A stretch of 64,000 bases of DNA from Cellvibrionaceae bacterium (GCA_050633885.1 JBOEHK010000002.1:853504-917503); one strand, 5' to 3'. Positions 8,975-44,546 are shown, numbered from the stretch's first letter. The notes: generated by a model from the letters alone, not told the origin. Numbers and translations: made by a program.

Positions 8975-9871
8975 TTATTGAGAGGAAGGATACCGAATGG
9001 TAATGGGCAGTGGAGTTAAATACGAGTGTTTTTGCTCAGGTGTTAATGCGGTCAACGTGCCGAGCTTTTTATTAAAATCCTTGATGGCAGCAATTCTTCG
9101 GTCGTCCATTGGGTGAGTGGTCAATATTTCGGGTGTTATATTCTTGCCATGTATTTTTTTAAAAATAGAAAATATTTCATCGGCGCCAATAGCATGCCCA
9201 TAATGTTGATGTAAGGCTTTCATTGCTTCACTATCGGCTTCTGTTTCTTGATCTCGCCCAAATTTTAATGAAGTAATTAGGCCTACATTGCCAACAAGTC
9301 CTTGGGAAAAGCTACTGTCTCCAAATCCTGTTAGCGATGCAAGGGCAAGACCGATAGTAATGCCTCTTCCCAAAGAAACAATGGGATCTCGATGTTTGAT
9401 ATGAGCGATCTCATGACCTAGTACCATTGATAACGCATTTTCTGAAGAAAGCTTTTCTATGAGTCCGCGGAACATAAAGATGTGTCCGCCAAGTGTTGCG
9501 AACGCGTTCACGGTATCATCGTCGATATAATGGACTGTGATAGCCATGCCCTCGGGAAGTTCTTGATGTATTGATATTTTATTTGCTAGTTCTTGTAGAT
9601 AGCTTTCGATTTTTTCATGCTGTCTGTGTTGTTCAGAGTCACTGTCTTTTTTTTCTACATCGAATAATGTTGAGTTAAATTGTTTGGCTAGTTTAACTTC
9701 GGTTTCAAAAGGAATAAAACGTACTAAATACTCAGCAGCAAAAGCTAAAAAGACAACTAAGCAAATGACTCCAAGGCTAACAGCCGCTATTAACCACGCA
9801 AATTCTTTTAGTGGATGATCTGGAGAAACGTTGATCCCTTCTGGTATTTTAGGGTTGCGATAATTTGTCAT
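8975..9871 (-). CDS. M48 family zinc metallopeptidase, N-terminal TM anchor
   Basis: HEIAHIKHRD (HEXXH) plus downstream ETEADSEA. TM segment WLIAAVSLGVICLVVFLAF. Confidence 0.85.
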   Translation of the reverse strand: MTNYRNPKIPEGINVSPDHPLKEFAWLIAAVSLGVICLVVFLAFAAEYLVRFIPFETEVKLAKQFNSTLFDVEKKDSDSEQHRQHEKIESYLQELANKISIHQELPEGMAITVHYIDDDTVNAFATLGGHIFMFRGLIEKLSSENALSMVLGHEIAHIKHRDPIVSLGRGITIGLALASLTGFGDSSFSQGLVGNVGLITSLKFGRDQETEADSEAMKALHQHYGHAIGADEIFSIFKKIHGKNITPEILTTHPMDDRRIAAIKDFNKKLGTLTALTPEQKHSYLTPLPITIRYPSSQ

Positions 9872-9912
9872 TGTGTTTTATTTTTATCAATTCATTGTCT
9901 AATGATCAATCG

Positions 9913-10359
9913 TTATGATTTAGTGAGAGCCGTTCCGTAAGCATACACTTCTACGCTACCGACTTGTTGTTTCTTGCCTTTATAGATTGAGGCCGTTTCT
10001 AATTTGACATTGATGATCGTATCCGCTCCTACGGCTTTAGCTTTTGCTTTCATGCGTAAAATGGCTTCTCTGCGCGCTCGCTCAATAAGTGATTCGTAAG
10101 CACTGACTCTTCCACCCACTAAAGCCCTCAAGCTAGCGGCGATTTTTTTAAAGTAATCTATCGAAATCACAACATTTCCGCAGACGAGTGCAGAGTGGCA
10201 TTTTTCTGTTAAGTCATTTGGATAGCGCTTGGCAAAAGTGAGCACTTCCGATAGCTCGTCTTCTCTTTTTATAATGGAAGAAAAATGTCGCTTCTCAATC
10301 CACCGACCAGAAAGATAACCGATGATTAATAAAATAAGAAAAAAATAAATATTGTACAT
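9913..10359 (-). CDS. YbjQ/UPF0145 family protein with N-terminal TM helix
   Basis: C-terminal 100 aa are alignable by eye with the neighbouring YbjQ paralogue (SAYESLIERARREAILRMKAKAKAVGADTIINVKLETAS...YAYGTA). N-terminal MYNIYFFLILLIIGYL anchor. Confidence 0.7.
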   Translation of the reverse strand: MYNIYFFLILLIIGYLSGRWIEKRHFSSIIKREDELSEVLTFAKRYPNDLTEKCHSALVCGNVVISIDYFKKIAASLRALVGGRVSAYESLIERARREAILRMKAKAKAVGADTIINVKLETASIYKGKKQQVGSVEVYAYGTALTKS

Positions 10360-10416
10360 AACACAATTCTTCGGTTTATAAGAAAATATTTAATTGAGAT
10401 GGTGTTGGCTGAATCA

Positions 10417-10731
10417 TTATTCAAGCACCACAGCCGTTCCATAAGCAAAAAGTTCTGCCGCGCCTGCAGTGATGGATGATGTGGATAACCTGACGTTGAC
10501 GACAGCGTTAGCGCCAATGGCTTCTGCTTGTTGCTCCATTCTAGATAACGCTTCTTCCCGAGCTTCTGTTAACAGTTCAGTATAACCTTTCAGTTCGCCC
10601 CCAAAAATGTTCTTAAAGCCGGCCATTAGATCACGGCCAACATGCTTGGCGCGTACAGTGTTTCCTTGAACCATGCCAAGGTGTTCTTTGATTCGTCGCC
10701 CTGGAATCATTTCGATATTTGTAATTAACAT
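10417..10731 (-). CDS. YbjQ/UPF0145 family protein (soluble)
   Basis: MLITNIEMIPGRRIKEHLGMVQGNTVRAKH..GGELKGYTELLTEAREEALSRMEQQAEAIGANAVVNVRL..FAYGTAVV. Start chosen at MLITN; the track ORF starts at 10758. Confidence 0.75.
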   Translation of the reverse strand: MLITNIEMIPGRRIKEHLGMVQGNTVRAKHVGRDLMAGFKNIFGGELKGYTELLTEAREEALSRMEQQAEAIGANAVVNVRLSTSSITAGAAELFAYGTAVVLE

Positions 10732-11026
10732 AGAAGATTGCCTTGTGTTGATAAACAATAAAACGGTATAAAATGACTTACCTGTGATTATTGGTGTAAT
10801 ACAGTGTTGTGTCTATGAATAAAATGGTATGTGGTAAAGGTATATCTACCGGCTGGCGTTTTCTATCTTAGGGTGATCATAGGTGGAGTGATCTATTTTT
10901 AAACTCGTTAATACTCATTTAGAATTCAAGTGTTGTGAGAAAAATAAAAAAACGGCTCTATATTGGTAAGGAGCACCATAGAGCCGTAAAAGGTTGAATC
11001 AAATATGAGGGTATGAGAGGAAATGT

Positions 11027-11674
11027 TTAAGTGCTAGTTAGCCAGTTATTTTCAAGATTGTTGATAAATTCTTTTTTGATGCTTTTTAAATGGATACTTT
11101 TTTTATCCGTTAGCCATAGTGTCATCATCCCCCGCAGGCTAGCTATTAAAATGGTCGCTTGTTGTTGAGGATCTAAATCAGTTCGAATTTCTTCCTTATT
11201 GATCGCGTGTTCTATATGAAGCGTCAAGTTTTTAATAGCATGTTCGTTCATGTTGGAAATAAAAGGCTGTAATGCTTTGTTGGTCATTCCTTCAGAAATA
11301 ATTAATTGGAAGGCGAGCGTAATATGTGAGTCGTTTGACACACCCCAAAAATATTGGTCAATAACGGCATAAACCATATCAAGTCCATCGCAAATATCTG
11401 TTTTCTCCTTGAGGTTGCTATTGAATCGAGAGGCGATGTGATTGATGACTGAGATGAGAAGTTCGTTTTTTTTCCCAAAATGATGACTCGCTATGCCTCG
11501 GCTATAACCTGCCATTTCTCCTGCAGCTGCCAGCGTAAGCCCACTCAGCCCTTTGTCGGCGATTAATCGAGTGGCGGCTTCTGTAATTTTGCGTTCAGCC
11601 GTTTCTCGCCTTTCGGTTTGGGTGCGTCGAGACTGGGCTGGCTTAATGGATAAGGACGGCATTGATTCTCTCAA
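11027..11674 (-). CDS. TetR/AcrR family transcriptional regulator
   Basis: N-terminal HTH: ITEAATRLIADKGLSGLTLAAAGEMAGYSRGIASHHFGKKNELL. Divergent from the CMD/PQQ/VOC operon. Confidence 0.85.
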   Translation of the reverse strand: MRESMPSLSIKPAQSRRTQTERRETAERKITEAATRLIADKGLSGLTLAAAGEMAGYSRGIASHHFGKKNELLISVINHIASRFNSNLKEKTDICDGLDMVYAVIDQYFWGVSNDSHITLAFQLIISEGMTNKALQPFISNMNEHAIKNLTLHIEHAINKEEIRTDLDPQQQATILIASLRGMMTLWLTDKKSIHLKSIKKEFINNLENNWLTST

Positions 11675-12015: not shown

Positions 12016-13395
12016 ATGTCTATTTCACTTTTTAAATCAGGGGTTGTTGTGAACACTACTCATATCAAAAGCACCGTTTCAGTTTTATCAAAACTTATTG
12101 TGGTTATTTTATACTTGAGCGTATTTGCATGTACAAAAAATACCGATGAAAAAGTAACACATACTTCGGATCCGATAAAAATTGAAAATGAAAAGACAAA
12201 TACAGCGGAAGTAACAGAACAGAATTCGTCATTCAATAATCACTTTTCAACGAGATTGAAAGTTCCCAGAATCAAACCACTACCTGTTGAGGGAAGATCA
12301 CCTGAGCAAATTGCTATGCTGGCAGATCGTCCAGATTACAATTTGTATAAAACGCTGGCCCATCATGTTGAATTGTATAATCACTGGACGCCCTTAGGTC
12401 GAGCATTATTAAATGGATCAAAAATACCTGCACGTGATAGAGAAATTATTATGTTGCGAATGGGTTGGCTGTGTCAGGCGGAATATGAATGGTCACAACA
12501 TGCTCGCATTGCAACAGCTGATGATGTGGGAATGACATATGATGAAGTTAAAAACATTGCTGCAAACCCCAATGGAAATATGTGGTCTGACTTTGAAAAA
12601 GCGTTAATGACAATGGTGGATGAATTGCGTTATGACGCGCTGATTAGTCAGAAAACCTGGAATGCATTAGCAACACGGTATGATAACCAACAAATTATGG
12701 ACGCATTATTTACGGCAGCTCAATACCAATTAGTGTCTATGCTACTGAATAGTACCGGCATTCAATTAGACCCTATATTAGAACATCGTTTGCCCACCGA
12801 TATTACCTTGCCTGCGTTGGCAGAAAAAACACATAGCGAACGTTTATCAGCACCAAGATTGGCGCCATTAAAAAATAGTGAGATGAGTGAAGAACAAAAA
12901 ACAATGATAACGCAGCAAACGCGAGAAGATGGTTCTGTTTTAAATCTTTATGCGACATTAATTCATCATCCAAGACTTTATGGTCCGCGCTATACATTCG
13001 GTCGTTATTTGTTACGAAAAACCAGTTTACCGGCCGCTACTCGCGAGTTATTGATTATGCGAACAGCGTGGTTAATTAATTCAGAATACGAATGGGCGCA
13101 TCATGTGTCTTTCGCAAAAGAGGCTGGCCTTAGCGATGAGCAAATAAAGAATATTACGGTAGGCGCAGATTCTCCCGTTTGGAATGAAGAGCAAAAAGCT
13201 GTGATAAGAGCAGCAAATGAATTACGAGAAGAAGCTTTTATTACAGACGCCACGTGGTCAACCTTGTTGAATTATTACGATACAAAGCAAATGGTAGAAA
13301 TATTATTCACTGTTGGTGGATACACGATGACAGGTTTAGCCGTCAATAGTTTTGGTGTTCAAGTGGAAGAGGGTTATCCATCTTTTCCAGAATAA
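12016..13395 (+). CDS. lipoprotein with two carboxymuconolactone decarboxylase (AhpD-like) domains
   Basis: Lipobox LSVFAC. Internal duplication visible: ...REIIMLRMGWLCQAEYEWSQHARIA... and ...RELLIMRTAWLINSEYEWAHHVSFA... Confidence 0.6.
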   Translation: MSISLFKSGVVVNTTHIKSTVSVLSKLIVVILYLSVFACTKNTDEKVTHTSDPIKIENEKTNTAEVTEQNSSFNNHFSTRLKVPRIKPLPVEGRSPEQIAMLADRPDYNLYKTLAHHVELYNHWTPLGRALLNGSKIPARDREIIMLRMGWLCQAEYEWSQHARIATADDVGMTYDEVKNIAANPNGNMWSDFEKALMTMVDELRYDALISQKTWNALATRYDNQQIMDALFTAAQYQLVSMLLNSTGIQLDPILEHRLPTDITLPALAEKTHSERLSAPRLAPLKNSEMSEEQKTMITQQTREDGSVLNLYATLIHHPRLYGPRYTFGRYLLRKTSLPAATRELLIMRTAWLINSEYEWAHHVSFAKEAGLSDEQIKNITVGADSPVWNEEQKAVIRAANELREEAFITDATWSTLLNYYDTKQMVEILFTVGGYTMTGLAVNSFGVQVEEGYPSFPE

Positions 13396-13509: not shown

Positions 13510-15813
13510 ATGAAAAATTTCACTATGAAAAAAATACATGTTAAAGCAACAGTTTTGGCCGCGACACTTCTATTGTCGGGGTTGCCACTCGCTGGAGCGC
13601 ATGCACAAACCGGCGCTCCAAATGGTGAATGGCATACTTGGGGTGGCGATTTAGGTTTTACTCGTTACGCTGACCTTGATCAGATCAATAAAAAAAATGT
13701 TGAAAAACTATCATTAGCATGGCGTTGGCAGTCATTACCTCACGGCAATCGCCCAGATAATAATTTGAAAGCAACCCCATTAATGATTGATGGTGTTTTG
13801 TATACGCCAACAGGCGTTCATCAGGCCGCAGCGTTAGATCCCGCGACAGGTGAAACGTTATGGGTCTTTTCTCCAGAGCCAGCTGATATCGGTGGACGAA
13901 ATCCCTCTTCGAGCAGTCGCTCTTTAGCGTATTGGACCGATGGAAAAAACAAACGACTTTTTCATAACACATTAGACGGCCGACTTATTTCGATTGATGC
14001 AAAAACGGGTGAAGCGGATCCTGCATTTGGAGAAAGTGGCTATATCATTTTAAAAAATCAACTAACTGATCGCGAAGTTCCTTTTGTGGGTTCTTCTTCT
14101 CCGCCAACAGTGGTGGGGGATGTTGTCGTTGCTCAAGTCGTTACTTATATCACTTCTCCCAACAAAGAAGCTCCACCGGGACATATTCGTGGTTATGATG
14201 TAAGAACGGGTGAGTTGTTGTGGACGTTTCATACTGTTCCGCAAAAAGGCGAATTCGGGAACGATACATGGGAAAAAGAATCGTGGAAGTACACTGGGAA
14301 TACCGGTGTGTGGACCATGATGAGCGCGGATGACGAAACGGGATATATTTACTTGCCGGTAGAAGCACCGTCTCATGATTTTTATGGCGGCCATCGATTG
14401 GGTGATAATTTATTTGCACAAAGTCTTGTGTGTTTGGATGCAAAAACAGGCAAACGTGTTTGGCATTACCAAATGGTTCATCATGGCTTGTGGGATTATG
14501 ATCCGCCGTCCGCACCGATACTGGGTGACATTGTAGTTGAGGGCAAAAAAATTAAAACCGTCACTCAATTAACAAAACAAGGCATGTCATTTGTTTTTAA
14601 TCGTGTCACTGGCGAACCGGTTTGGCCTATTGAAGAAAAGTCAGTACCACAATCTACCGTTCCAGGTGAACGAAGTGCGCCAACCCAGCCTTTTCCTACC
14701 AAGCCAGCACCTTATGTACCTCATGGTTATAGCGAAGAAAATTTAATTGGTTTTACTCCAGAGCTAAGAAAAGAAGCGATTAAAATTGCTGAGCAATATG
14801 TACGAGGCCCAATTTATACGCCGCCAACAAGAATTGATACCACCTCTAAAAATGGTACTCAAGGCACTTGGGTTCAACCCGGTTATGGTGGTGGTTCAAA
14901 CTGGAATGGCGGCGCATTTGATGTTGAAACGGGTTACATGTTTGTTCCTACTCGAAATAACGCGATGATTGCTCGCTTGGCACAAGCAGATCCTTCATTA
15001 ACGGATTGGGATTATATTCGAGCAACAACAATGACGGCTGAAGGACCACAAGGTTTGCCAATCGTTGCTCCACCTTGGAGTAAAGTAACAGCGACCGATA
15101 TGAATAAAGGTGAGCATGTATGGTGGCGAGCCATTGGCAGTGCGCCTGATAGTGTTCGTCATCATCCCGCGCTTAAAGGTTTGGATTTAGATTTTGACAA
15201 CATGGGTTATCCCGGCGTTAGACCAGTACCGCTAGTTACCAAATCATTATTCTTCATGGCGGAGAGCGGCAATTTAAGTGGTGATCCAGGTGGAAAGTTA
15301 TTTCGCGCCTACGATAAAGCAACCGGTAAAACCGTTGCAGAGATAGAGCTTCCCAGTAAAGTGTCTGGTGGGCCAATGACGTATCAGCACAAAGGCAAGC
15401 AATACATCGTGATGGCCATTGCCACACAAGAGCATCCCGCTGAATTAATTGCGTTAGCTTTGCCCGATAAAGGTAAAGAGAAAGAAAAAGGGAAAGCAAA
15501 AAAAGAAGTCCCTTCGCATTCGGCACTTGATTTCATTACACAGGGAACAGATGCGAAAGAGATTACAGCGTCCAAAGAAACACTTGAGCTTGGCCGTAAA
15601 GTGTTTGCAGAAACTTGCTCAATTTGTCACGGTGGGGCGGGTGAAGGTATGGCTGGAGGTGCGCCTGCATTATTCGGGATGACCGATTTAACCAATATAC
15701 TGCGAGCTGTTACACAAGGCGGTGTTGAAATGCCACCGATGAAACAAATGCTCACCGGTGAACAAATTGATGCCGTCAGTAAGTTTGTGGCTGTAGAGCT
15801 TAAAAGAGATTAA
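13510..15813 (+). CDS. soluble PQQ-dependent dehydrogenase with C-terminal cytochrome c domain (quinohemoprotein)
   Basis: Signal peptide ending AGAHA. Beta-propeller region is paralogous by eye to the membrane Gcd in this window (HHGLWDYDPPSAP vs HHDIWDYDVPSQP). A K/E-rich linker precedes CSICHG...MPPM (haem c). Confidence 0.8.
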   Translation: MKNFTMKKIHVKATVLAATLLLSGLPLAGAHAQTGAPNGEWHTWGGDLGFTRYADLDQINKKNVEKLSLAWRWQSLPHGNRPDNNLKATPLMIDGVLYTPTGVHQAAALDPATGETLWVFSPEPADIGGRNPSSSSRSLAYWTDGKNKRLFHNTLDGRLISIDAKTGEADPAFGESGYIILKNQLTDREVPFVGSSSPPTVVGDVVVAQVVTYITSPNKEAPPGHIRGYDVRTGELLWTFHTVPQKGEFGNDTWEKESWKYTGNTGVWTMMSADDETGYIYLPVEAPSHDFYGGHRLGDNLFAQSLVCLDAKTGKRVWHYQMVHHGLWDYDPPSAPILGDIVVEGKKIKTVTQLTKQGMSFVFNRVTGEPVWPIEEKSVPQSTVPGERSAPTQPFPTKPAPYVPHGYSEENLIGFTPELRKEAIKIAEQYVRGPIYTPPTRIDTTSKNGTQGTWVQPGYGGGSNWNGGAFDVETGYMFVPTRNNAMIARLAQADPSLTDWDYIRATTMTAEGPQGLPIVAPPWSKVTATDMNKGEHVWWRAIGSAPDSVRHHPALKGLDLDFDNMGYPGVRPVPLVTKSLFFMAESGNLSGDPGGKLFRAYDKATGKTVAEIELPSKVSGGPMTYQHKGKQYIVMAIATQEHPAELIALALPDKGKEKEKGKAKKEVPSHSALDFITQGTDAKEITASKETLELGRKVFAETCSICHGGAGEGMAGGAPALFGMTDLTNILRAVTQGGVEMPPMKQMLTGEQIDAVSKFVAVELKRD

Positions 15814-21246: not shown

Positions 21247-21786
21247 TTATTTTTCAATGTGTACTAATTCCATATTGAAAATTAGTAACTCGTTGCTACC
21301 GATCATTCTTCCAGCGCCTTTACAGCCGTAAGCTAAATGAGGCGGAATAGTCAGTATGCGTTGCTCACCCACAGACATGGTTAAAAGAGCTTCTGTCCAA
21401 CCTTTGATAACGCGAGCGACTTTAAATTGGAGAGGAATACCGCGATCTCTAGAGCTTTCTAACTTTTTTCCGGCAAGATTAAATAGCTCATAATGTGCGA
21501 CTACTTCATTTCGTGGTGATGGAATTGTTTTGCCGTCGCCGGATTTTTCGATGCGATATTGCAAGCCTGTTTTTGTGGTGATAACACCTTCTTTGGTTTT
21601 ATTCAGCGCTAAATATTCATTTGCTTTACGCAAGTTTTCTTGAGCGCCGGGCGCTCTGCATTGTTTACTTTGTTCAGCCGTTTCAGAAAAAACATGACAT
21701 GAAAGTAATAATAAAATAGCTGGCAGAAGGGCAAGAATAAATTTTTTGATTAAACGATATTGAGATAAAAAATATAAGTTCATCAA
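21247..21786 (-). CDS. FKBP-type peptidyl-prolyl cis-trans isomerase, exported
   Basis: Signal-like N-terminus. GLQYRIEKSGDG...VVAHYELFN..G..LESS...PLQFKVARVIKGWTEALLTMSVGEQRILTIPPHLAYG. Confidence 0.85.
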   Translation of the reverse strand: MMNLYFLSQYRLIKKFILALLPAILLLLSCHVFSETAEQSKQCRAPGAQENLRKANEYLALNKTKEGVITTKTGLQYRIEKSGDGKTIPSPRNEVVAHYELFNLAGKKLESSRDRGIPLQFKVARVIKGWTEALLTMSVGEQRILTIPPHLAYGCKGAGRMIGSNELLIFNMELVHIEK

Positions 21787-36225: not shown

Positions 36226-36996
36226 ATGAGCAATATGATCAATGTTGTGGCGATATTTTTGATGAGCGTTGTACTCATTAGTGGCTGCGGCGAACAGCCA
36301 TCATCGGCGAACATTACAGATATAAATACAGATGTAAAAATAAAAAAACCAATAGATGAAAAAAAACACGGTTTTCAATCGCTAGAAGATCGATTTAGTT
36401 ATGCCTATGGTGCTGACTTGGCAGAAAAATTTAAAGCGGAAGGCATTGAATTAAATGTCGATATTCTAGCGACCGCAATGCGAGATGCATTTAAAGGCGG
36501 CGAAATGAAAATGCCTGATGACGAAGTCATCGCTACACTTGCACTTTATCAAAAAATATTTTTGAAGAAGAAAGAAGAACAAAAAGCCATCGCTGCTGAA
36601 AAAAACAAAAAAGAAGGCAAAGTATTTTTAGCTGAAAATGCCAAAAAAGAAGGCGTAGTCATCACAGAAAGTGGCTTGCAGTACAGAGTAATCACAGCCG
36701 GTGATGGCGGCTATAAACCGAAATTTAATGATGAAGTACAAGTGCATTATCGCGCAACGTTTACCGATGGCACCGAATTCGATAGCACTCACAAGCGCGG
36801 TGAGCCTTATAGCGTCAAAGCTAAAATGCTGATTGACGGTTGGGCCGAAGCGCTTCAGCTAATGACAGCAGGCGCCAAATGGGAATTAACGATACCGGCA
36901 GAACTTGCTTATGGCGAAGAAGGCCAGGATCCCTATATCGGACCAAATGCCGTACTGATTTTTGAAGTGGAATTGCTTGAAATTGAAGAGGGATAA
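36226..36996 (+). CDS. fkpA: FKBP-type peptidyl-prolyl isomerase, FkpA/Mip-like lipoprotein
   Basis: Lipobox LISGCG, dimerisation-helix region, FKBP domain GLQYRVITAGDG...[15 protein letters not shown]...[26 protein letters not shown]. Confidence 0.9.
   Translation: MSNMINVVAIFLMSVVLISGCGEQPSSANITDINTDVKIKKPIDEKKHGFQSLEDRFSYAYGADLAEKFKAEGIELNVDILATAMRDAFKGGEMKMPDDEVIATLALYQKIFLKKKEEQKAIAAEKNKKEGKVFLAENAKKEGVVITESGLQYRVITAGDGGYKPKFNDEVQVHYRATFTDGTEFDSTHKRGEPYSVKAKMLIDGWAEALQLMTAGAKWELTIPAELAYGEEGQDPYIGPNAVLIFEVELLEIEEG
36755..36983 (+). repeat. 229-bp direct repeat, left copy (3' end of intact fkpA)
   Basis: Collinear with 39520..39748 at a constant offset of 2765 nt. I count 8 mismatches, all at third codon positions. 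Confidence 0.95.
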
Positions 36997-37255
36997 AAAG
37001 CCGTCACAATAAGTTCACAATTATCGGGTGATACCATTATATTTTCTGGTTTAATTTAGAGGCCTAAATTTAGAAGTTTAGAAGTTTAAGTTTGGTGCGA
37101 TGAGTAGATTTGATTTAGCTGTTTTTTACTAATTAAAAACGGAGTATAAAAATTGTATTCTCGGCGAAAACTCTTTGTCGCTAGGTGCAAGTTCTTCGCT
37201 TTAAACTCTTCAACGCAAACTCTTCAACTCAAATTTTTCTTTGCAAGAAGCATAA

Positions 37256-38524
37256 TCATTCCTCGACAGAAAACGGATTTAAAAATTGCCGCTTCCAAAG
37301 CAACTGTCGATCAACTTCATTTAATTCCGCTTCATCACAAACCGATTGCCAGTTTTTCTCAATAATAATTTTTTGATGTTCAAAAATCGCATAGGCTTCA
37401 TCTTTCTTGAGTAAAAAATTTTTCGCAGCAGATAAACATGTTTTGAACTGGCTTAAATTATTTTCGCCAATAATCCGCATAGCTTGACCAGCCTCATTGC
37501 CCAAGCGTCCTTGAGGGCAGATATCATAGGCGGGAGTTAAACTTAAATGTTTTCCATCCCAAAACGCCGCATGGTTTCGGGCATGATCGTCAGTATTGCC
37601 ACATAAAATATTGAACAATAATCGCGAGAACAATTCTTTGAGTGTATCTTTAGGTTCAATAAATCGATGGCGAATAATTTCAGCTAATGTTTCATAACTG
37701 GCGTAGCGCGCCATCATGTCATCTAACCCAAATAAGGTGAGGGCAGAGACCATGGGTTGCCGCGTCCAGTCTTTGCCATTAAATTTCCTATCGAAACGCT
37801 CAATGAGCACAATATCTTTATTGGCTGCTTTCACCATTTTCACTGGCGCAACATTAATGCCGGCCAGTTTTGCCAAGCGCATAGCGATAAATTCCGCTTT
37901 CACCACGCTGTACAAATCATTCGTAGCAGAAAATTTAGCAATATATTTTGTGTCTTTTTCTTCGATTAACGCCTTAGGGCGTGCTCCGCCAATCGAGCTA
38001 CCATGAAAGAGCGCCTGATCTAATTCTGGCCGGAGAGGTATACCTTTCTCAACGCGCTCCGCTGATTGCATCAATTCTTCAATACTGACATTTTTTGCGA
38101 AGCGTGGAATATATTCAGTGGGAGATTGCTGAAAGTCCAAAGCACCAATCCGATCAGAGCCGGACTCTAAAAGGTAGGTCAGTTCATCAAGTGTAGCCGT
38201 ATCGGTATTCGCACCTTTTAAACCGAGTTTTTTATTAATAATCACTCGGCGCCCCCAAGCATCAGGAGCGCCATCACGAATACAACCTGGTATTTTTAAT
38301 CCATTCAAATTAGAAAGCACGCCCGCTTTTAATGGCAACTCAGGTTCGTAGATAGACATAGCTGGCGGAGTATCTTTAATACGCTCCAAATAACTTTTAC
38401 CGTAGTTAAATAAAAGCGCATCGCCATCGGCTTCAAGTTTTCCTGCGACCACAGGTTTTATTTCATTAGGTAGCCAGATCCAGACATAGCTTTCTTTGTA
38501 TTGGTTGTTAGAAGTCATCGTCAA
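37256..38524 (-). CDS. hipA: HipA-family serine/threonine kinase toxin (type II TA)
   Basis: About 420 aa. HGSSIGGARPKA (P-loop-like), CGNTDDHARNHA catalytic loop. 17-nt overlap with the upstream HTH gene. Confidence 0.85.
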   Translation of the reverse strand: MTMTSNNQYKESYVWIWLPNEIKPVVAGKLEADGDALLFNYGKSYLERIKDTPPAMSIYEPELPLKAGVLSNLNGLKIPGCIRDGAPDAWGRRVIINKKLGLKGANTDTATLDELTYLLESGSDRIGALDFQQSPTEYIPRFAKNVSIEELMQSAERVEKGIPLRPELDQALFHGSSIGGARPKALIEEKDTKYIAKFSATNDLYSVVKAEFIAMRLAKLAGINVAPVKMVKAANKDIVLIERFDRKFNGKDWTRQPMVSALTLFGLDDMMARYASYETLAEIIRHRFIEPKDTLKELFSRLLFNILCGNTDDHARNHAAFWDGKHLSLTPAYDICPQGRLGNEAGQAMRIIGENNLSQFKTCLSAAKNFLLKKDEAYAIFEHQKIIIEKNWQSVCDEAELNEVDRQLLWKRQFLNPFSVEE

Positions 38525-38852
38525 CTACCTTCATTTTTTTACGGGCTTTTTGAGGAAGTAGAGCGAGCTTCTCTTCGGTTTCTTTAATGTGTCTCGCCAA
38601 CGTCAATGAAGATGGATCAGCATCGAAAAGATTCACCCCGACAATAGCCGCCACTTCGAACACAGCTCCGATCTCACATTTCAAATCGCCTTTTTCAATA
38701 CGCTGAAGCATACTTCTAGAAATTCCAACTCGTTCAGCTACCTCTTGAGCGCTTAACCGACGCTCTAATCTGGCGGCACGAATGAGCCCCGAGAGAAGCG
38801 TGATCGCTTCTTCGGTATAACGTGAATATGAACGTGTCACTGATTTTGGCAT
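38508..38852 (-). CDS. hipB: XRE-family HTH antitoxin (HipB-like)
   Basis: LSAQEVAERVGISRSMLQRIEKG helix-turn-helix. Lies upstream of hipA and overlaps it. Confidence 0.8.
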   Translation of the reverse strand: MPKSVTRSYSRYTEEAITLLSGLIRAARLERRLSAQEVAERVGISRSMLQRIEKGDLKCEIGAVFEVAAIVGVNLFDADPSSLTLARHIKETEEKLALLPQKARKKMKVVDDDF

Positions 38853-38872
38853 TTTGTCTTACATATAAGTCA

Positions 38873-38993
38873 ATAAACCGCCAATCGGTTTATATGTGAA
38901 CCATATACTAGATCATGGTTGAAAAGCGATCAAGCTATAAATGGTTCATAAAAGACCCATTAAGCTATCTATTGGTTTATATGTAACCCATAT
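38873..38993. promoter_or_regulatory. candidate hipBA operator region: inverted repeat ataaaccg-N5-cggtttat and 20-nt direct repeat ggtttatatgt(g/a)a(a/c)ccatat
   Basis: Inverted repeat at 38873-38893. Direct repeats at 38887-38906 and 38974-38993, read directly. Confidence 0.35.
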
Positions 38994-39058
38994 TGATTGT
39001 TTCAACAAAGGAGCCGAAGTTATGAAGTTGTTGATTGGTGGGCCACTAGCTAGTACTA

Positions 39059-39436
39059 ATGAGCGGTGAATTAAATACGATGGACGATCAGATACGTGAA
39101 GATATATTGAATGAAGCTGCAAGAAATTATTATAACGACAAAAATTTGGTTGAAAGATTAAGGCGGCGAGTTAAAAGAAAATTTGGATCACTCGTCGATA
39201 AATCAGAAATCAATGACACAATTATTCTTTCAAAAAACATCTATGAAAGTGTGAAAGCACTTTTGCCTAATTTTACAGAAAGTAATAAAACAGCCTTCGC
39301 TGATCCACAAGACATTAATTATGATTTCCTCGCCAAAGCAGTACACGAAAAATCTCTTTCAAATAAAAATCAGTTTAATCTCGATGATATTCATCAAGTA
39401 GTGAATTGGGTCATTTATTGGGAGTATCTTAGGTGA
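39059..39436 (+). CDS. hypothetical protein
   Basis: 125-aa ORF divergent from hipB. No motif recognised. Confidence 0.4.
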   Translation: MSGELNTMDDQIREDILNEAARNYYNDKNLVERLRRRVKRKFGSLVDKSEINDTIILSKNIYESVKALLPNFTESNKTAFADPQDINYDFLAKAVHEKSLSNKNQFNLDDIHQVVNWVIYWEYLR

Positions 39437-39487
39437 TTTATTTTCCCGAGTTTAATAATTTATTTGAGGCTGTAAATTTAGGGGGGG

Positions 39488-39519
39488 TAGACTTGAATCA
39501 AGTTTCTCTGACCCCTTGA
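39488..39519 (+). repeat. 32-nt direct repeat copy A (taga.. gaatcaagtttctctgaccc ..ttga), preceded by a G7 run
   Basis: Exact 20-nt core shared with 42567..42586. Abuts the fkpA' homology boundary. Confidence 0.85.
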
Positions 39520-39520
39520 C

Positions 39521-39764
39521 AACGTTTACCGACGGCACTGAATTCGATAGCACCCACAAGCGCGGTGAGCCTTATAGCGTCAAAGCTAAAATGCTGATTG
39601 ACGGTTGGGCCGAAGCGCTTCAGCTAATGACAGCAGGCGCCAAATGGGAATTAACGATACCGGCAGAACTTGCTTATGGCGAAGAAGGCCAAGATCCCTA
39701 TATTGGACCAAATGCCGTGTTGATTTTTGAAGTGGAACTGCTTGAAATAGAGAAAGAGAAATGA
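39521..39764 (+). pseudogene. orphan 3' fragment of fkpA (last ~76 codons plus a divergent tail)
   Basis: Encodes [77 protein letters not shown], identical to the FkpA C-terminus. No N-terminal two thirds. Confidence 0.85.
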
Positions 39765-39919: not shown

Positions 39920-40498
39920 TTAACGAGGAAAGAAAATTTCTTGTGTTCTTCCCGTGCGAATTAAGGCAGCCATAAGCGATATAAAGAGGGCAGGATTTTT
40001 TTCTAACACGGCGAGTCGATCTAAATATTCTTTAATATAACCTTTAATTAAGAAAAGAATCATATCGTAGCCTCCCATATCATTTCGTAATCGACGCCAC
40101 AGTGTTGGACAGTTTTGATTCAGCTGGCGGCTTTCCTGTGCTGCAACACCTGCCCAACCATTAGCTTTTAACAATAAAAACATTACTGCTCCTAAGCCAC
40201 CACGCCCCTGCTTGGCACTTTTGCGAATACTTGTGAGCCGACGCTTCACACGCATATCATTTTTTGCTTGAGTCATAATTTTTTTTGTGATTTTGGTAGC
40301 CAAAATCACGGCAATAGATCGCGCTAACCGCTTACCAACTTGTTTTCCTATTAAACGCTGCCCTTTAGTGTTTATAAAGTTCGCCGCCGCATTCGTATTA
40401 ACACTTTCCCATGCCACACCGAGTACTTTCCTTGCAACACAGTCAATTTCAACTGTGTCTATACCATCAGGAAATAGAAGAGCTCCATTCTCGATCAT
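39920..40498 (-). CDS. hypothetical protein; probably the C-terminal part of a gene split by a frameshift
   Basis: The frame is open for 147 nt upstream of its ATG (back to 40645) and overlaps the tail of ORF 40579..41016. Confidence 0.4.
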   Translation of the reverse strand: MIENGALLFPDGIDTVEIDCVARKVLGVAWESVNTNAAANFINTKGQRLIGKQVGKRLARSIAVILATKITKKIMTQAKNDMRVKRRLTSIRKSAKQGRGGLGAVMFLLLKANGWAGVAAQESRQLNQNCPTLWRRLRNDMGGYDMILFLIKGYIKEYLDRLAVLEKNPALFISLMAALIRTGRTQEIFFPR

Positions 40499-40578
40499 AC
40501 TTTGAAGTGTATCTTCAGGTATCAGCGAAACATATTCATCAATGACCGCAAAGACTAGTTGAAATAGAGGATTCTCTG

Positions 40579-41016
40579 CTAAGTTAAGCTCGAAATTAGC
40601 AATGTTTGATACACTAAACTTAACAACAGAGTAAAGAGCGTAGTTTCACCTCCCACAGTCTGAACACCTACAATACCTGAAGCACCAAGACCTTCGGCCG
40701 TGCGCTCTACACCGCTACCTAGTACTTCCCCTTGTCGAATAGTTTGATGATGAATTCCATCAATAACACCCGAAGCAAATGGTGAAACTGCGTCGGCATA
40801 ATTCAAAAATTCGTGGTAGGTTGTTTCGTGTTTCATTGCTCGATAAGAAGGAGTATGGCATCCGAAGTTGCACTCCTGCCATCGTTTTTCTATTTGAGCT
40901 TGCGTTTGAAGAGGGTTAATACTAGAAAATTTAGCTGCGTTATATCCTTGTAAGTATCGTTTGACACCTAGCTCACTAACGAGGTCCCCATTGTGTTCCA
41001 TTGACATATCAGTCAT
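40579..41016 (-). CDS. hypothetical protein; probably the N-terminal part of the same split gene
   Basis: Starts 9 nt after the upstream lipoprotein gene ends. No motif recognised. Confidence 0.4.
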   Translation of the reverse strand: MTDMSMEHNGDLVSELGVKRYLQGYNAAKFSSINPLQTQAQIEKRWQECNFGCHTPSYRAMKHETTYHEFLNYADAVSPFASGVIDGIHHQTIRQGEVLGSGVERTAEGLGASGIVGVQTVGGETTLFTLLLSLVYQTLLISSLT

Positions 41017-41025
41017 CCTTTTTAT

Positions 41026-41574
41026 TTATTGCACCATCATCTTTAAAAAGTCATTTTGCTTTTCATTTACATTTTTTCTTAATCCTTCCGGAGTGTTATA
41101 AACCACAACTCTCTGCGCACTTGCAGTGCTTGGAAAAAATACTTCAATTGTATAGTCTGCCAGGTTTGGCTCAGGCGTTTTAACTTTCGCAAACAATCCT
41201 TGAAACCCTTCTCGATCAACTTCACCAAAATCAATCTTTGCGGATTCCCTTATTTCTCCATCTGGGAGAGAAGATGAGACATGAAGTTTAAGGAAATATT
41301 CCTTTGCGTTTTCTTCATCAAATGTATTGGTATTAGTGGAATGAACAGTTACTAATGATCCCTCATTTGTAATGATGCTTGTATCCTTACCTCCGTACCG
41401 ATTGTCTGCAACTTCAAATGCTTCCCACTCGACGGGTAGCATGAAATCAACTTGAAATCCCGTATCATTTTCCCCTGTAGAGACAGGCTCAGATTCCGGT
41501 TTTGAACACCCAGCAGTAGCGGTGCACAATATAATTAAAAAAAAGAGTAAATTTAACTTGGCAAGATTAATCAT
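41026..41574 (-). CDS. hypothetical lipoprotein
   Basis: Lipobox TATAGCSK after a hydrophobic leader. Confidence 0.55.
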   Translation of the reverse strand: MINLAKLNLLFFLIILCTATAGCSKPESEPVSTGENDTGFQVDFMLPVEWEAFEVADNRYGGKDTSIITNEGSLVTVHSTNTNTFDEENAKEYFLKLHVSSSLPDGEIRESAKIDFGEVDREGFQGLFAKVKTPEPNLADYTIEVFFPSTASAQRVVVYNTPEGLRKNVNEKQNDFLKMMVQ

Positions 41575-41859
41575 AGATTTTTGAGGATAAGCTACGGATT
41601 TTGGGGTTTATAGAATGGATATTGAGTAGCTTAGTGAGGCAGCATTATTTCAAATCCGTTTGTATTATGAATATATTTCCTGCGCTGAATATACCTGATC
41701 CTCTAACGTGTATGAAGCCGTTTCCTATGCTTTTTCATTAAATAACCTAAATTAATGAGAACAAGATCACTGTCGGCCAGAAAACAGACATGCAGTGCCG
41801 ACTACTCAATGCCTGCAGTAATAAATGGGGGCAAATAAGACGTAAATATTTTTGTTTGT

Positions 41860-42516
41860 CTACCGCACGTTAAACCGTAAAACGGTTTTTAATTTTTCGG
41901 GCGCTGTTTTCCTTAAATCCGAAAGGTAAATTTCTCGGTGAATTTTAGAAAGACGGGTAAGGCCTTTTTGTTTAGCAAATGCTTCCATTTCACTAAAGCT
42001 TGCCGGCTCGTCGGCAAACTTTCCTACGTGTAACATCTGCACGCATTTCCCTTCGGTTACTTTATGAAATTTGATTTTGTCGTAAAGAGGGTTTGGCTTT
42101 TTCTTTTTTACAATATCAAACATTTCGGCATAGATAGCGTCATCCACAAAGTCTGGTTGGCGGAGCATAATCTCGTAAACAAGGTCATCGGGGTTGATGA
42201 TGCCGGTAAAATTCTCTCTCGCTTCTACTTTAATATCCCAAACGCCTTCTAATGGATACACCGTAAAATCTTGATAGCCTTTGGGCTTTTTGGTTTGTTT
42301 TTTCAGCGTCATTTTTATGGTGTAGGCGAGAGGGTACAAAGCCCTGATATGCTCTTGGAAGAAAGCACTGTTTGGATTGCCTTCTCCGCTGATAGAAATA
42401 AATTTGAATTCAGGAATATTAACTACCTCGGGTTTTCTTTTGGGAAGATAGAATTGTTTTTCCTGTTTTCGCCATTCGTGTTTGTCAGACATGATTGTTC
42501 TTTTTATATTTTCCAA
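41860..42516 (-). CDS. GyrI-like small-molecule-binding domain protein
   Basis: YPLEGVWD...GKCVQMLHVGKFADEPASFSEMEAFAKQKGL...HREIYLSDLRKTAPEKLKTVLR pattern. Confidence 0.65.
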   Translation of the reverse strand: MENIKRTIMSDKHEWRKQEKQFYLPKRKPEVVNIPEFKFISISGEGNPNSAFFQEHIRALYPLAYTIKMTLKKQTKKPKGYQDFTVYPLEGVWDIKVEARENFTGIINPDDLVYEIMLRQPDFVDDAIYAEMFDIVKKKKPNPLYDKIKFHKVTEGKCVQMLHVGKFADEPASFSEMEAFAKQKGLTRLSKIHREIYLSDLRKTAPEKLKTVLRFNVR

Positions 42517-42559
42517 TTTTAATAATTTATTTTAGATTGTAGATATAAGGGAGTTGGTT

Positions 42560-42591
42560 TAGATTAGAATCAAGTTTCTCTGACCCTTTGA
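42560..42591 (+). repeat. 32-nt direct repeat copy B
   Basis: tagattagaatcaagtttctctgaccctttga. Lies between the GyrI-like gene start and the ftsH stop. Confidence 0.85.
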
Positions 42592-42647
42592 TCGGTTTTA
42601 TTTTGGTGTCCTCATTGAATCAAAAGCCACAGCTAACAAGCTGCACT

Positions 42648-44546
42648 TTATTTTGATTTTTCCACATTATCGCGTTTCAAAATCTCTTCAATCATCCCAA
42701 GATCCAACGTCTCTTTATTCAGCAACGCTTCCACCAACTTATCTAAATCCCAACGATGCTCCAATAAAACATCTATGGTTGTTTGTTCTGCTTCTTTGAT
42801 GATTCGGTGAATTTCTTGATCGATTTTTCGGGCGGTTTCTTCACTAAAATCTTTTTCTTGTTGTATTTCGTAACCTAAAAAAGGATGTTCGGTGCCGACT
42901 TTGTAATGAATCGGGCCGATGGTGTCGCTCATGCCCCATTGTGTGACCATCATTTTTGCAAGATGGGTTGCTTGTTCTAAATCGTTTGATGCGCCAGAAC
43001 TCATATCATCTAATACCATTTTTTCGGCAACGCGTCCGCCGAGCATGACAGACAATCGCGTTTCTAAATAAGCTTGCGTGTAGTTGTGACGATCTTCTTG
43101 GGGGAGTTGTTCTGTTGCACCTAACGCTCGACCGCGTGGAATAATTGATACTTGCCGAAGTGGATCGCTGTTCGGTAAAAATAATGCGGCGATGGCGTGG
43201 CCGCTTTCGTGTACGGCGGTTCGTTTTCTTTCGGAGGGATTTAATAAATCTTTTCTTTCTGAACCCATGATGACTTTGTCGTGGGCTTGATTAAAATCTT
43301 CTCGCGTGACGATGTCAGCTTTCCGGCGGGCGGCAGAAAGCGCGGCTTCGTTGACGAGGTTGGCTAAGTCGGCGCCCGAAAATCCTACAGTCATACTCGC
43401 CAGCTCTTTTAAGTCGACATCGAGTGCGATGGGAACTTTTCGGGTGTGTACTTTTAATATGTCGATTCTTGCATTTTGTTGCGGAAGTTCGAGAGTGACT
43501 TTTCTGTCAAAGCGGCCGGGTCTTAATAGGGCGGGGTCGAGTACATCGGGGCGATTGGTTGCGGCTAGAACGACAACGACTTCGTCTGCGGTAAAGCCAT
43601 CCATTTCGGCCAGTATTTGATTTAAGGTTTGTTCTCTTTCGTCGTTACCGCCACCGAGTCCGGTGCCGCGAACGCGTCCGACGGAATCTATTTCGTCAAC
43701 AAAAATTAAGGCGGGTGCTTTGTTTCTCGCTTCTTTAAACATGTCGCGAACACGTGATGCGCCAACGCCGACAAACATTTCGATAAATTCTGAGCCACTA
43801 ATACTAAAAAAAGGAACACCCGCTTCGTGTGCTGTCGCTTTGGCGAGCATGGTTTTACCAGTGCCGGGTGGGCCCATTAATAAAATACCTCGTGGCATTT
43901 TTGCGCCAAGCTTTTTAAACTCATCAGGATTTTTTAGAAAATCGATAATTTCTTGTAAGTCTTGTTTTGCACCTTCGACACCAGCGACATCGTCGTAACC
44001 AATTTCATTATCTTTTGTTTCAAATAAGCGCGCTTTGGATTTTGAAAAACCAAATAGGCCGTCTTTGCCGCCACCGCCGCCCATGCGTTGTTGTAACATT
44101 CTGCTGGAGTAAACAAAAAATGCGAGAATTAAAAGCCAAGGGACAATGCCAATTAATATTTGAAACCATTGCGGTTCGGCCGATGATTTGGCGACGATGT
44201 TGACTTCGTGTGTTTCGAGTAGGGGTAATAGGTCGGTGTCGTTGGTTGCGGGTAATACTGTGCGAAATTCTTTGGGTTTGTTGATGTCGTCGCTGCTGTA
44301 CACTCCAAGTATTTGATCGCCTTTGAAGGTGACGGTTGCTACTTGGTTTGTTGTGACGGCGTTTTTAAATTCAGTGTAAGAAATTTCTGTGGTTTTGGAA
44401 CTCGATAAACCGGAGAAAATGGAATAAACAGCGAAGACCATCATGAGCCATATTAATGTGTGCGCATCAAATGGGTGAGGTGCTTTAGGCGGTATGGGGT
44501 CTGAATGATTGCCTGTGTTTTTATTTTGCTCTTCGCTGTTTGTCAT
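42648..44546 (-). CDS. ftsH: ATP-dependent zinc metalloprotease FtsH (possibly a paralogue, non-canonical context)
   Basis: Two N-terminal TM helices, [44 protein letters not shown]. Confidence 0.9.

Follow-up and report, generated by a model that had tools for sequence, protein, structure and literature searches.

The replacement of a gene's end by inserted DNA is a layout that has been known since the 1980s, and inserts bracketed by direct repeats also arise in other ways. Cis-mobilizable elements (CIMEs) arise by accretion and decay of integrative and conjugative elements (ICEs), for example, at the 3' end of fda in Streptococcus thermophilus. Insertions of the Campbell type, or by homology-facilitated illegitimate recombination (HFIR), include single-crossover plasmid integration, the duplicated 3' conserved segment (3'-CS) of complex class 1 integrons, and HFIR in Acinetobacter and Streptococcus. 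The locus described here is a 2.8-kb islet that carries hipA, hipB and orf125 and lies within fkpA, a peptidyl-prolyl isomerase gene, in a 64,000-nt stretch of DNA from a Cellvibrionaceae bacterium (GCA_050633885.1 JBOEHK010000002.1:853504-917503; the whole stretch is referred to as the window). It is a further example of a known structure, here without a recombinase present.

In E. coli K-12, icd and the icdC pseudogene lie on either side of the element e14 (PMC13626634). When used as a control, the last 165 nt of icd and icdC were found to have 12 differences, 10 synonymous and 2 that change Asp to Glu, and an abrupt start of homology, at the promoter-proximal edge, with 11 identical nt ahead of the first difference. 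Like the islet, e14 (and phage 21) at icd is an insert in the 3' part of a housekeeping gene, which supplies a diverged, functional end and leaves the truncated native end beyond it. However, e14 is 15.2 kb and is annotated with intE and xisE, whereas the islet is 2.8 kb and lacks a recombinase; in addition, the far end of the islet copies a resident intergenic element, and its repeat has a long homogenized center. A CIME is also small, has direct repeats at its borders, lies at a gene's 3' end and lacks integration or transfer genes of its own, so that it could be moved only by the integrase of a related element. Its repeats are att cores of tens of bp, whereas the repeat of the islet is a 232-nt replacement gene end. 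Campbell-type and HFIR insertions share with the islet a direct duplication that brackets the insert, one homologous and one novel junction, and the lack of a dedicated recombinase.

The repeat that bounds the islet was defined by a repeat search together with direct comparison and involves three features (coordinates are those of the window):

fkpA: 36226 to 36996, plus strand, intact gene for an FKBP-type peptidyl-prolyl isomerase (FkpA/Mip-like lipoprotein) with Pfam domains FKBP_N and FKBP_C
R1: 36755 to 36986, plus strand, upstream repeat copy, which forms the functional 3' end of fkpA (last 76 codons and stop)
R2: 39520 to 39751, plus strand, downstream copy of the repeat, within a remnant open reading frame (ORF; 39516 to 39764) that is missing the first 177 codons

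R1 and R2 form an ungapped, 232-nt direct repeat at an offset of 2765, spanning the last 76 codons of the gene for this FkpA/Mip-type lipoprotein, whose LISGC lipobox can be read from the sequence. A preliminary description of this DNA had aligned 36755-36983 with 39520-39748 at the same offset. This alignment holds, although the ungapped repeat is 232 rather than 229 nt. The 8 differences that had been counted are correct for that interval, with a ninth at 36984 (ATT/ATA), but they do not all fall at third codon positions, as had been claimed: those at 36955 (CTG/TTG) and 36973 (TTG/CTG) are first-position changes in Leu codons. The claim of 76 identical residues is borne out, since all 9 differences in the 232 nt are synonymous (9/9) and the encoded residues agree at 76/76 positions. 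Homology begins abruptly. The base before R1 (36754) is G and the base before R2 (39519) is A, and nothing similar is present further to the left, where R1 is preceded by the remainder of fkpA (...CATTATCGCG, then CAACG) and R2 by unrelated sequence (...GACCCCTTGA, then CAACG). The repeat starts at fkpA codons 177/178, a position that falls in a conserved FKBP motif (HYRA/TFTDG, the slash marking the start) and inside the near-palindrome ATCGcgcAACGTTtacCGAT; the first 13 nt of the repeat are identical ahead of the first difference. Past 36986 the C-termini diverge (EEG-stop vs EKEK-stop), and beyond the stop codons the two tails keep gapped similarity for roughly 30-60 nt. A second, short FKBP-type isomerase gene (21247-21786, minus strand, 179 aa), 15 kb upstream, is too diverged for a role in the repeat.

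The 76 codons common to both copies contain 50.7 synonymous sites, which gives a synonymous divergence (dS, Jukes-Cantor [JC]) of 0.20 and a nonsynonymous divergence (dN) of 0. When mutations were placed at random using the observed 8 transitions to 1 transversion, the probability that 9/9 would be synonymous was 2.6e-5 with neither copy constrained and 1.1e-3 with R1 alone constrained and R2 drifting. Neutral decay of an in situ duplication, against which the preliminary description had argued from the silent-only pattern, is thus rejected, and both R1 and R2 gained their differences under purifying selection. Polarizing the 9 differences by an outgroup was uninformative (4 match R1, 4 match R2 and 1 matches neither).

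The closest public genomes are metagenome-assembled genomes (MAGs) of Cellvibrionaceae, whose FkpA (P0001) is 79% identical to that of the window. One species is represented by L001/L005 (PBSAgamm1, one contig; L001 is JAILXR010000001.1) and by two other assemblies, L003 and L004, which are identical to L001 throughout; L014 (JBFPEF010000091.1) is a second species, about 10% diverged from L001. The gene order in these relatives is lnt, a 250-aa gene, the gene for a 229-aa secreted protein, fkpA, a 361-aa gene, a lipoprotein gene, a variable segment, ftsH, and pfkB. In all of them (L001/L005, L003, L004 and L014) fkpA is followed directly by the 361-aa gene, without an insert. Comparison of empty and occupied sites had been proposed in the preliminary description, together with the possibility that all relatives carry the same arrangement. 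Instead, the related genomes are single-copy, and the site is empty and syntenic in one related species (three assemblies) as well as in L014. The site is occupied in the window and empty in the relatives, and R2 with its tail aligns collinearly with the end of fkpA and the DNA downstream of it in those genomes. R2 is therefore the displaced resident end of fkpA, and the DNA from R1 through position 39519 is the insertion. R1 presumably arrived together with hipA, hipB and orf125. It is a firm conclusion that a foreign islet lies inside fkpA, that it has brought its own functional, independently evolved end, that the native end persists as a remnant, and that the islet has no recombinase of its own. 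Two loci, neither of them occupied, came from a scan of the genome collection. When FkpA, HipA, orf125 and the lipoprotein were looked up by exact match, the only hits besides the contig of the window itself were two short contigs of a single metagenome, and none of the 80 loci from a metagenome scan, at best 86% identical in amino acid sequence, has a duplicated or truncated fkpA end.

No integrase, resolvase or transposase domain was detected in the ORFs of the islet or in the neighboring ORFs tested against Pfam. The remaining ORFs of the 64-kb window, judged by eye only, appear housekeeping-like with no recombinase among them, and a similarity comparison revealed no counterpart of the integrase fragments that are found beside hipBA in other genomes. 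The earlier statement that there is no integrase or transposase therefore stands for both the islet and the window. Several other sources of the structure were considered and rejected. A transposon or insertion sequence (IS) does not fit, given that there is no transposase, there are no terminal inverted repeats, and a diverged 232-nt duplication is not a target-site duplication. There is no tRNA, tmRNA or other known RNA in the window that could have been the target. For an integron cassette, there is no intI, and the 25-nt sequence at the right end of the islet (see below) has no attC-like R''/R' cores by eye and folds no better than shuffled sequence.

The 9 differences fall unevenly along the repeat: the first 35 nt contain 3 and the last 60 nt contain 6, whereas the 137 nt between them contain none; the flanks are thus about 10% diverged. 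For the same three segments, R1 differs from L001 by 4, 14 and 8 nt, and R2 by 3, 14 and 9 nt. Because there are 14 differences from L001 within it, the center is not intrinsically invariant. In the flanks, R1 and R2 have 9 differences in 95 nt from each other and 12 in 95 nt from L001. A gap as long as 137 nt among 9 differences placed on sites capable of synonymous change has a probability of P=0.0008. The central 137 nt have thus been homogenized, an outcome expected either of a crossover of the RecA type followed by repair of the heteroduplex or of gene conversion between the repeats at a later time. A 6-8-bp exchange by an integrase alone would not yield the R1/R2 mosaic.

At its other end, the islet is defined by a sequence that has a paralogue in the resident DNA downstream:

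Element A: 39437 to 39519, plus strand, right end of the islet, 77.5% identical to element B over 89 aligned columns
Element B: 42503 to 42591, plus strand, resident paralogue of A, closing the resident interval at its far end, between a GyrI-like gene and ftsH
361-aa gene homologue: 39920 to 41016, minus strand, conserved hypothetical gene, resident neighbor and first gene of the resident interval, split by one frameshift near 40645

Element A ends in the 25-nt sequence (25-mer) GAATCAAGTTTCTCTGACCCCTTGA, is cut after TTGA, and is joined straight to the first base of R2 (CAACG), with no visible microhomology and no fkpA homology on the left. Within the window, the 25-mer occurs only at 39495-39519 and 42567-42591, with one mismatch between the copies. 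It is present exactly in L001/L014, 15 nt past the stop codon of an 886-aa ATPase gene situated between the 25-mer and ftsH, and a weaker copy lies on the other side of a YafO toxin-antitoxin cassette; in all, L001 has two good and two weaker copies. The layout of the window is then upstream fkpA, a unit of R1, hipA, hipB, orf125 and A', a unit of R2, the 361-aa gene, the lipoprotein gene, the GyrI-like gene and B, and finally ftsH. Thus, given the R1/R2 and A/B paralogies, there are two tandem units, each starting with an fkpA end and closing with the same element. Most simply, the islet would resemble the fkpA-3'-to-ftsH interval of another lineage, in which hipA, hipB and orf125 replace the resident genes. 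It is not obvious why a dedicated integrative element should contain, at its far end, a copy of the resident element next to ftsH, whereas a segment taken from another lineage's interval would contain one.

It is proposed, as the best of the explanations and with a probability that we judge to be evenly balanced, that the islet was inserted by host homologous recombination across fkpA homology together with one illegitimate join, using DNA from another lineage's interval. The islet (36755-39519) would have been inserted in Campbell fashion into the last third of fkpA, so that R1 completes the gene and the resident end, R2, is pushed 2765 nt downstream as a dead remnant. Initially, element A, cut after TTGA, would be joined illegitimately to the CAACG of fkpA, either by circularization of a fragment or at the nonhomologous end of a homology-facilitated event. 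Host (RecA-type) homologous recombination within fkpA homology would then create the other junction, and this recombination, or subsequent gene conversion, would leave the central 137 nt identical. In the final step, hipBA would act as an addiction module, counter-selecting loss of the islet by R1 x R2 recombination. We infer the dependence on RecA, the gene arrangement of the donor and the addiction role of hipBA. Like the type II HipBA modules that stabilize islands and cassette arrays, the islet has a canonical hipB-hipA operon, overlapping genes and upstream repeats, and by analogy with toxin-antitoxin modules in islands hipBA may hold the islet against deletion between the 232-nt repeats. 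As expected for a Campbell-type event, one junction lies within shared homology while the other is a novel join, and the identical 137-nt center between diverged flanks is the conversion tract that such an insertion should leave, although later conversion looks the same.

A boundary at the same position of fkpA is present in the second species pair. Over the left 10.5 kb of the locus, L014 is 5-20% diverged from L001 per 100 nt, with the last mismatch at L001 position 10561; from 10562 to the end of the locus (20774), more than 10 kb, the two are 100% identical through the 361-aa gene, the YafO cassette, the 886-aa ATPase gene, ftsH and pfkB. The equivalent of the repeat start in L001 is 10566, and the switch occurs within 5 nt of it. 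The chance of the boundary hitting this landmark is roughly 0.01, by our own estimate, which takes a resolution of ~50 nt and a 20-kb locus and allows for a few alternative landmarks. The identical tract is either a very recent transfer between species or a chimeric contig. It is possible that the donor contained foreign DNA at the same fkpA position, so that homology began there, that an R segment is common to both species and the contig is chimeric across it, or that the boundary coincides with the fkpA position by chance. Foreign DNA in the donor or a shared R segment would mean that the fkpA position has been used repeatedly. The tract consists of more than 10 kb of core genes, possibly reflects a chimeric assembly, and has no companion in the metagenome scan, in which no second occupied site was found.

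Other explanations of the structure differ greatly in how well they accommodate these results. An assembly artifact, in which the fkpA ends of two strains would have been combined in a single contig, is extremely improbable. The junction between the islet and R2 is seen in the window's contig alone; L006, a contig from an independent metagenome (2831 bp, GCA_041156705.1) that corresponds to window positions 36686-39516 at 99.93% identity with 2 mismatches, stops 3 nt before R2. However, L006 reproduces the upstream fkpA/R1 junction and the islet, which answers that part of the concern about assembly voiced in the preliminary description. The downstream region is reproduced at 100% identity by a second contig (L013, exactly window 40017-42706), the source contig of the window is 919,872 bp, and the two sides of the A/R2 join share no k-mer, so there is no path for an assembler. 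Because these two sides share no sequence, a misjoin between islet and R2 is unlikely. The mismatches between L006 and the window lie only at 36708 and 36727, just upstream of R1, with none in the next 2789 nt; this placement is given little weight, as the two single-nucleotide polymorphisms (SNPs) are 19 nt apart and near the contig end. The SNPs near R1 and the end of L006 3 nt short of the islet/R2 junction may reflect strain heterogeneity at both junctions. An old, in situ duplication of the fkpA end that predated the split of the lineages, in which R2 was repaired by gene conversion while the cargo was replaced over time, is very unlikely. Flanks that are about as diverged from each other as from L001 would be consistent with it, as would a homogenized center, which shows that gene conversion occurs. 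Yet both related species are single-copy and without an insert, the unconverted flanks of a dead copy should have nonsynonymous changes or indels and have 0 in 95 nt, and the A/B paralogy is left unexplained.

The main alternative, which is possible but on balance doubtful, is that the islet is a remnant, or a cis-mobilizable satellite, of an integrase-driven element that targets a fixed site in fkpA and supplies a replacement end, in the same way as e14 and phage 21 at icd. Such a site, at codons 177/178 and inside the near-palindrome, would have a core of about CAACGTTTACCGA; the integrase and excisionase would have been deleted or would act in trans, and hipBA would be the surviving addiction cargo. 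The anatomy equals that measured for the e14 control, and an element with a replacement end, as the preliminary description had it, is matched point for point. Conserved sequence is typical of integrase targets, and no FKBP motif is more conserved than the one encoded at the site (HYRATFTDG). In L014/L001 a mosaic boundary falls at this fkpA position, with the chance estimated above as roughly 0.01, and L006 differs from the window only at the two SNPs that lie shortly ahead of R1. In addition, hipBA elsewhere lies beside decayed P4-type integrase fragments (L008, L011), and the A/R2 join lacks microhomology. What speaks against such an element is that neither a recombinase nor a remnant of one is present in the islet or the 64-kb window, that no integrase-bearing relative with a duplicated fkpA end was found in the 80 metagenome loci, the genome collection or viral contigs, and that the A/B paralogy of the far end is not explained. 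Furthermore, the homogenized 137-nt block would need an extra gene conversion, and the 100% identical, >10-kb tract of L014/L001 includes core genes (ftsH, pfkB), is itself no element, and might be chimeric. A cognate element that could provide CIME-type mobilization was likewise not found in the public collections searched. Insertion by host recombination, which the preliminary description had listed as homology-facilitated acquisition, fits the lack of a recombinase in 64 kb, the A/B paralogy and the 137-nt block at least as well as a site-specific element does, but a number of points weigh against it. The anatomy of the islet cannot be distinguished from that of e14/icd. Illegitimate joins made independently of RecA in bacteria seldom lack microhomology, as the A/R2 join does; in nature, HFIR mostly causes a deletion in the recipient and uses 3-8 nt of microhomology, whereas the islet duplicates DNA and no microhomology is visible. 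Recurrence at the same site in another species would not be expected of Campbell-type or HFIR insertion, and neither the L014/L001 boundary at the same fkpA position nor the confinement of the L006 SNPs to the DNA just upstream of R1 is predicted by a one-off event; together they favor a recurrent, site-defined process. Finally, the collections searched yielded no donor, that is, no genome in which fkpA is followed in order by hipBA, orf125, element A and ftsH. The data do not decide between host recombination and a site-specific element. More speculative, and unlikely, is the idea that codons 177/178 of fkpA are a recurrent recombination point in several Cellvibrionaceae, used either by a recombinase-free cassette that has a portable fkpA-end homology arm and is stabilized by hipBA, or by an unseen element that mobilizes the adjacent chromosome in one direction. 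The latter version, which would resemble lateral transduction or transfer from a high-frequency-of-recombination (Hfr) strain, would give >10-kb tracts starting exactly at the fkpA site, as in L014/L001.

What makes the locus moderately interesting is chiefly that a boundary is seen again, in another species, at the same nucleotide position; its practical importance is modest. If the insertion was driven by homology, the islet would be a clean, natural example of a replacement gene end without an integrase, in which an alternative allele of a variable interval has been caught in tandem and is held by a toxin-antitoxin pair, and it may represent a first step toward e14-like elements. If it was site-specific, fkpA would join icd, dusA, trmE, guaA and prfC as a protein-gene target, and the locus would point to an undiscovered element in marine Cellvibrionaceae. 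In either case, it is predicted that deletion by R1 x R2 recombination would yield a chimeric, functional fkpA and would be counter-selected by hipBA, and that the same nucleotide position would mark mosaic boundaries in related genomes.

The 25-mer, which may be a recombination site or an operator, can be written as GAATCAAGTTTCTCTGACCC(C/T)TTGA and contains an internal inverted repeat (GAATCAAG...CTTGATC); in L001 it is found at 14026-14050 and 12767-12792. It shows perfect conservation across genomes that share only about 80% identity in their coding DNA, is confined to the fkpA-ftsH interval, where it lies at the borders of gene modules, and brackets the YafO toxin-antitoxin cassette in L001. 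An origin as a genome-wide repetitive extragenic palindromic (REP) sequence or a miniature inverted-repeat transposable element (MITE) was rejected, as there are only two good copies in 64 kb, both within the fkpA-ftsH interval. The motif is absent from viral contigs.

Other features of the interval concern its resident genes. The lnt, 229-aa secreted protein and fkpA block is kept in more distant relatives (L020-L031 and L002), whose FkpA is 55-70% identical. In every one of these loci synteny stops at the fkpA stop codon, which argues that the region downstream of fkpA has long been variable. Using tblastn with the L001 protein, the 361-aa homologue of the window is read in two frames (aa 4-120 in frame -2 and aa 121-361 in frame -1). 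This frameshift is also present in the independent contig L013, and the gene may be a pseudogene or may use a programmed frameshift. The lipoprotein and 361-aa genes together form a module that is also seen in a Logan contig, L015, where positions 9260-11088 are 91% identical at the nucleotide level to L001 10937-12766. There its neighbors are BLUF, DUF6174 and FadBA genes, and both fkpA and ftsH are absent. In L001, the segment shared with L015 abuts the weaker B-like motif at one of its ends, and the module may itself be mobile.

The remaining features of the islet lie between R1 and element A, and its genes are as the preliminary description had them:

Spacer between the fkpA stop and hipA: 36997 to 37242, no strand; the first 30-60 nt have gapped homology to the tail after R2, with no match elsewhere
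hipA: 37256 to 38518, minus strand, HipA-family Ser/Thr kinase toxin, 420 aa from ATG, with Pfam domains HipA_C and Couple_hipA
hipB: 38508 to 38852, minus strand, antitoxin of the XRE type with a helix-turn-helix (HTH), Pfam HTH_3/HTH_31
hipBA upstream region: 38871 to 38993, no strand, two 36-nt direct repeats, each with a palindrome (candidate HipB operators)
orf125: 39059 to 39436, plus strand, hypothetical protein of 125 aa

The spacer also holds a weak, element-B-like stretch at about 37049-37130. The protein encoded by orf125 is nearly an orphan: it has no match in Pfam or PADLOC and only 16 remote relatives among 1.84 billion representative proteins, and the contexts of its best relative are contigs of less than 1 kb.

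In contrast to the rest of the islet, the module from 37243 to 38994 (hipBA and its upstream repeats), whose limits were set by alignments to five other genomes, is common to other genomes and is 82-84% identical to them at the nucleotide level. It has the properties of a type II HipBA system, that is, HipA_C with an N-terminal coupling domain and an upstream, overlapping HTH antitoxin gene; the stop of hipB overlaps the start of hipA by 11 nt (38508-38518). HipA is full length relative to 120 homologues and is 85-89% identical in amino acid sequence in Cycloclasticus, Paraglaciecola, Eionea and others, while HipB belongs to a 90% identity cluster of 28 members from several genera. Since the module occurs in unrelated genera and in mobile contexts, hipBA is mobile cargo. 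The plasmid and phage databases contained only distant hipA genes. The decayed integrase fragments of L008 and L011 lie downstream of groEL; in L008, a Cycloclasticus relative of hipBA is beside P4-type fragments (7151-7451) immediately downstream of that gene. On a plasmid-like contig (L098/L099, 2652-4510), hipBA is accompanied by ThsB-like TIR genes, a caspase-like peptidase, a resolvase, ParA and an IS66 transposase. In Eionea flava (L007, 7216-7375), at least 14 tandem copies of the octamer GCTGAACT precede hipBA.

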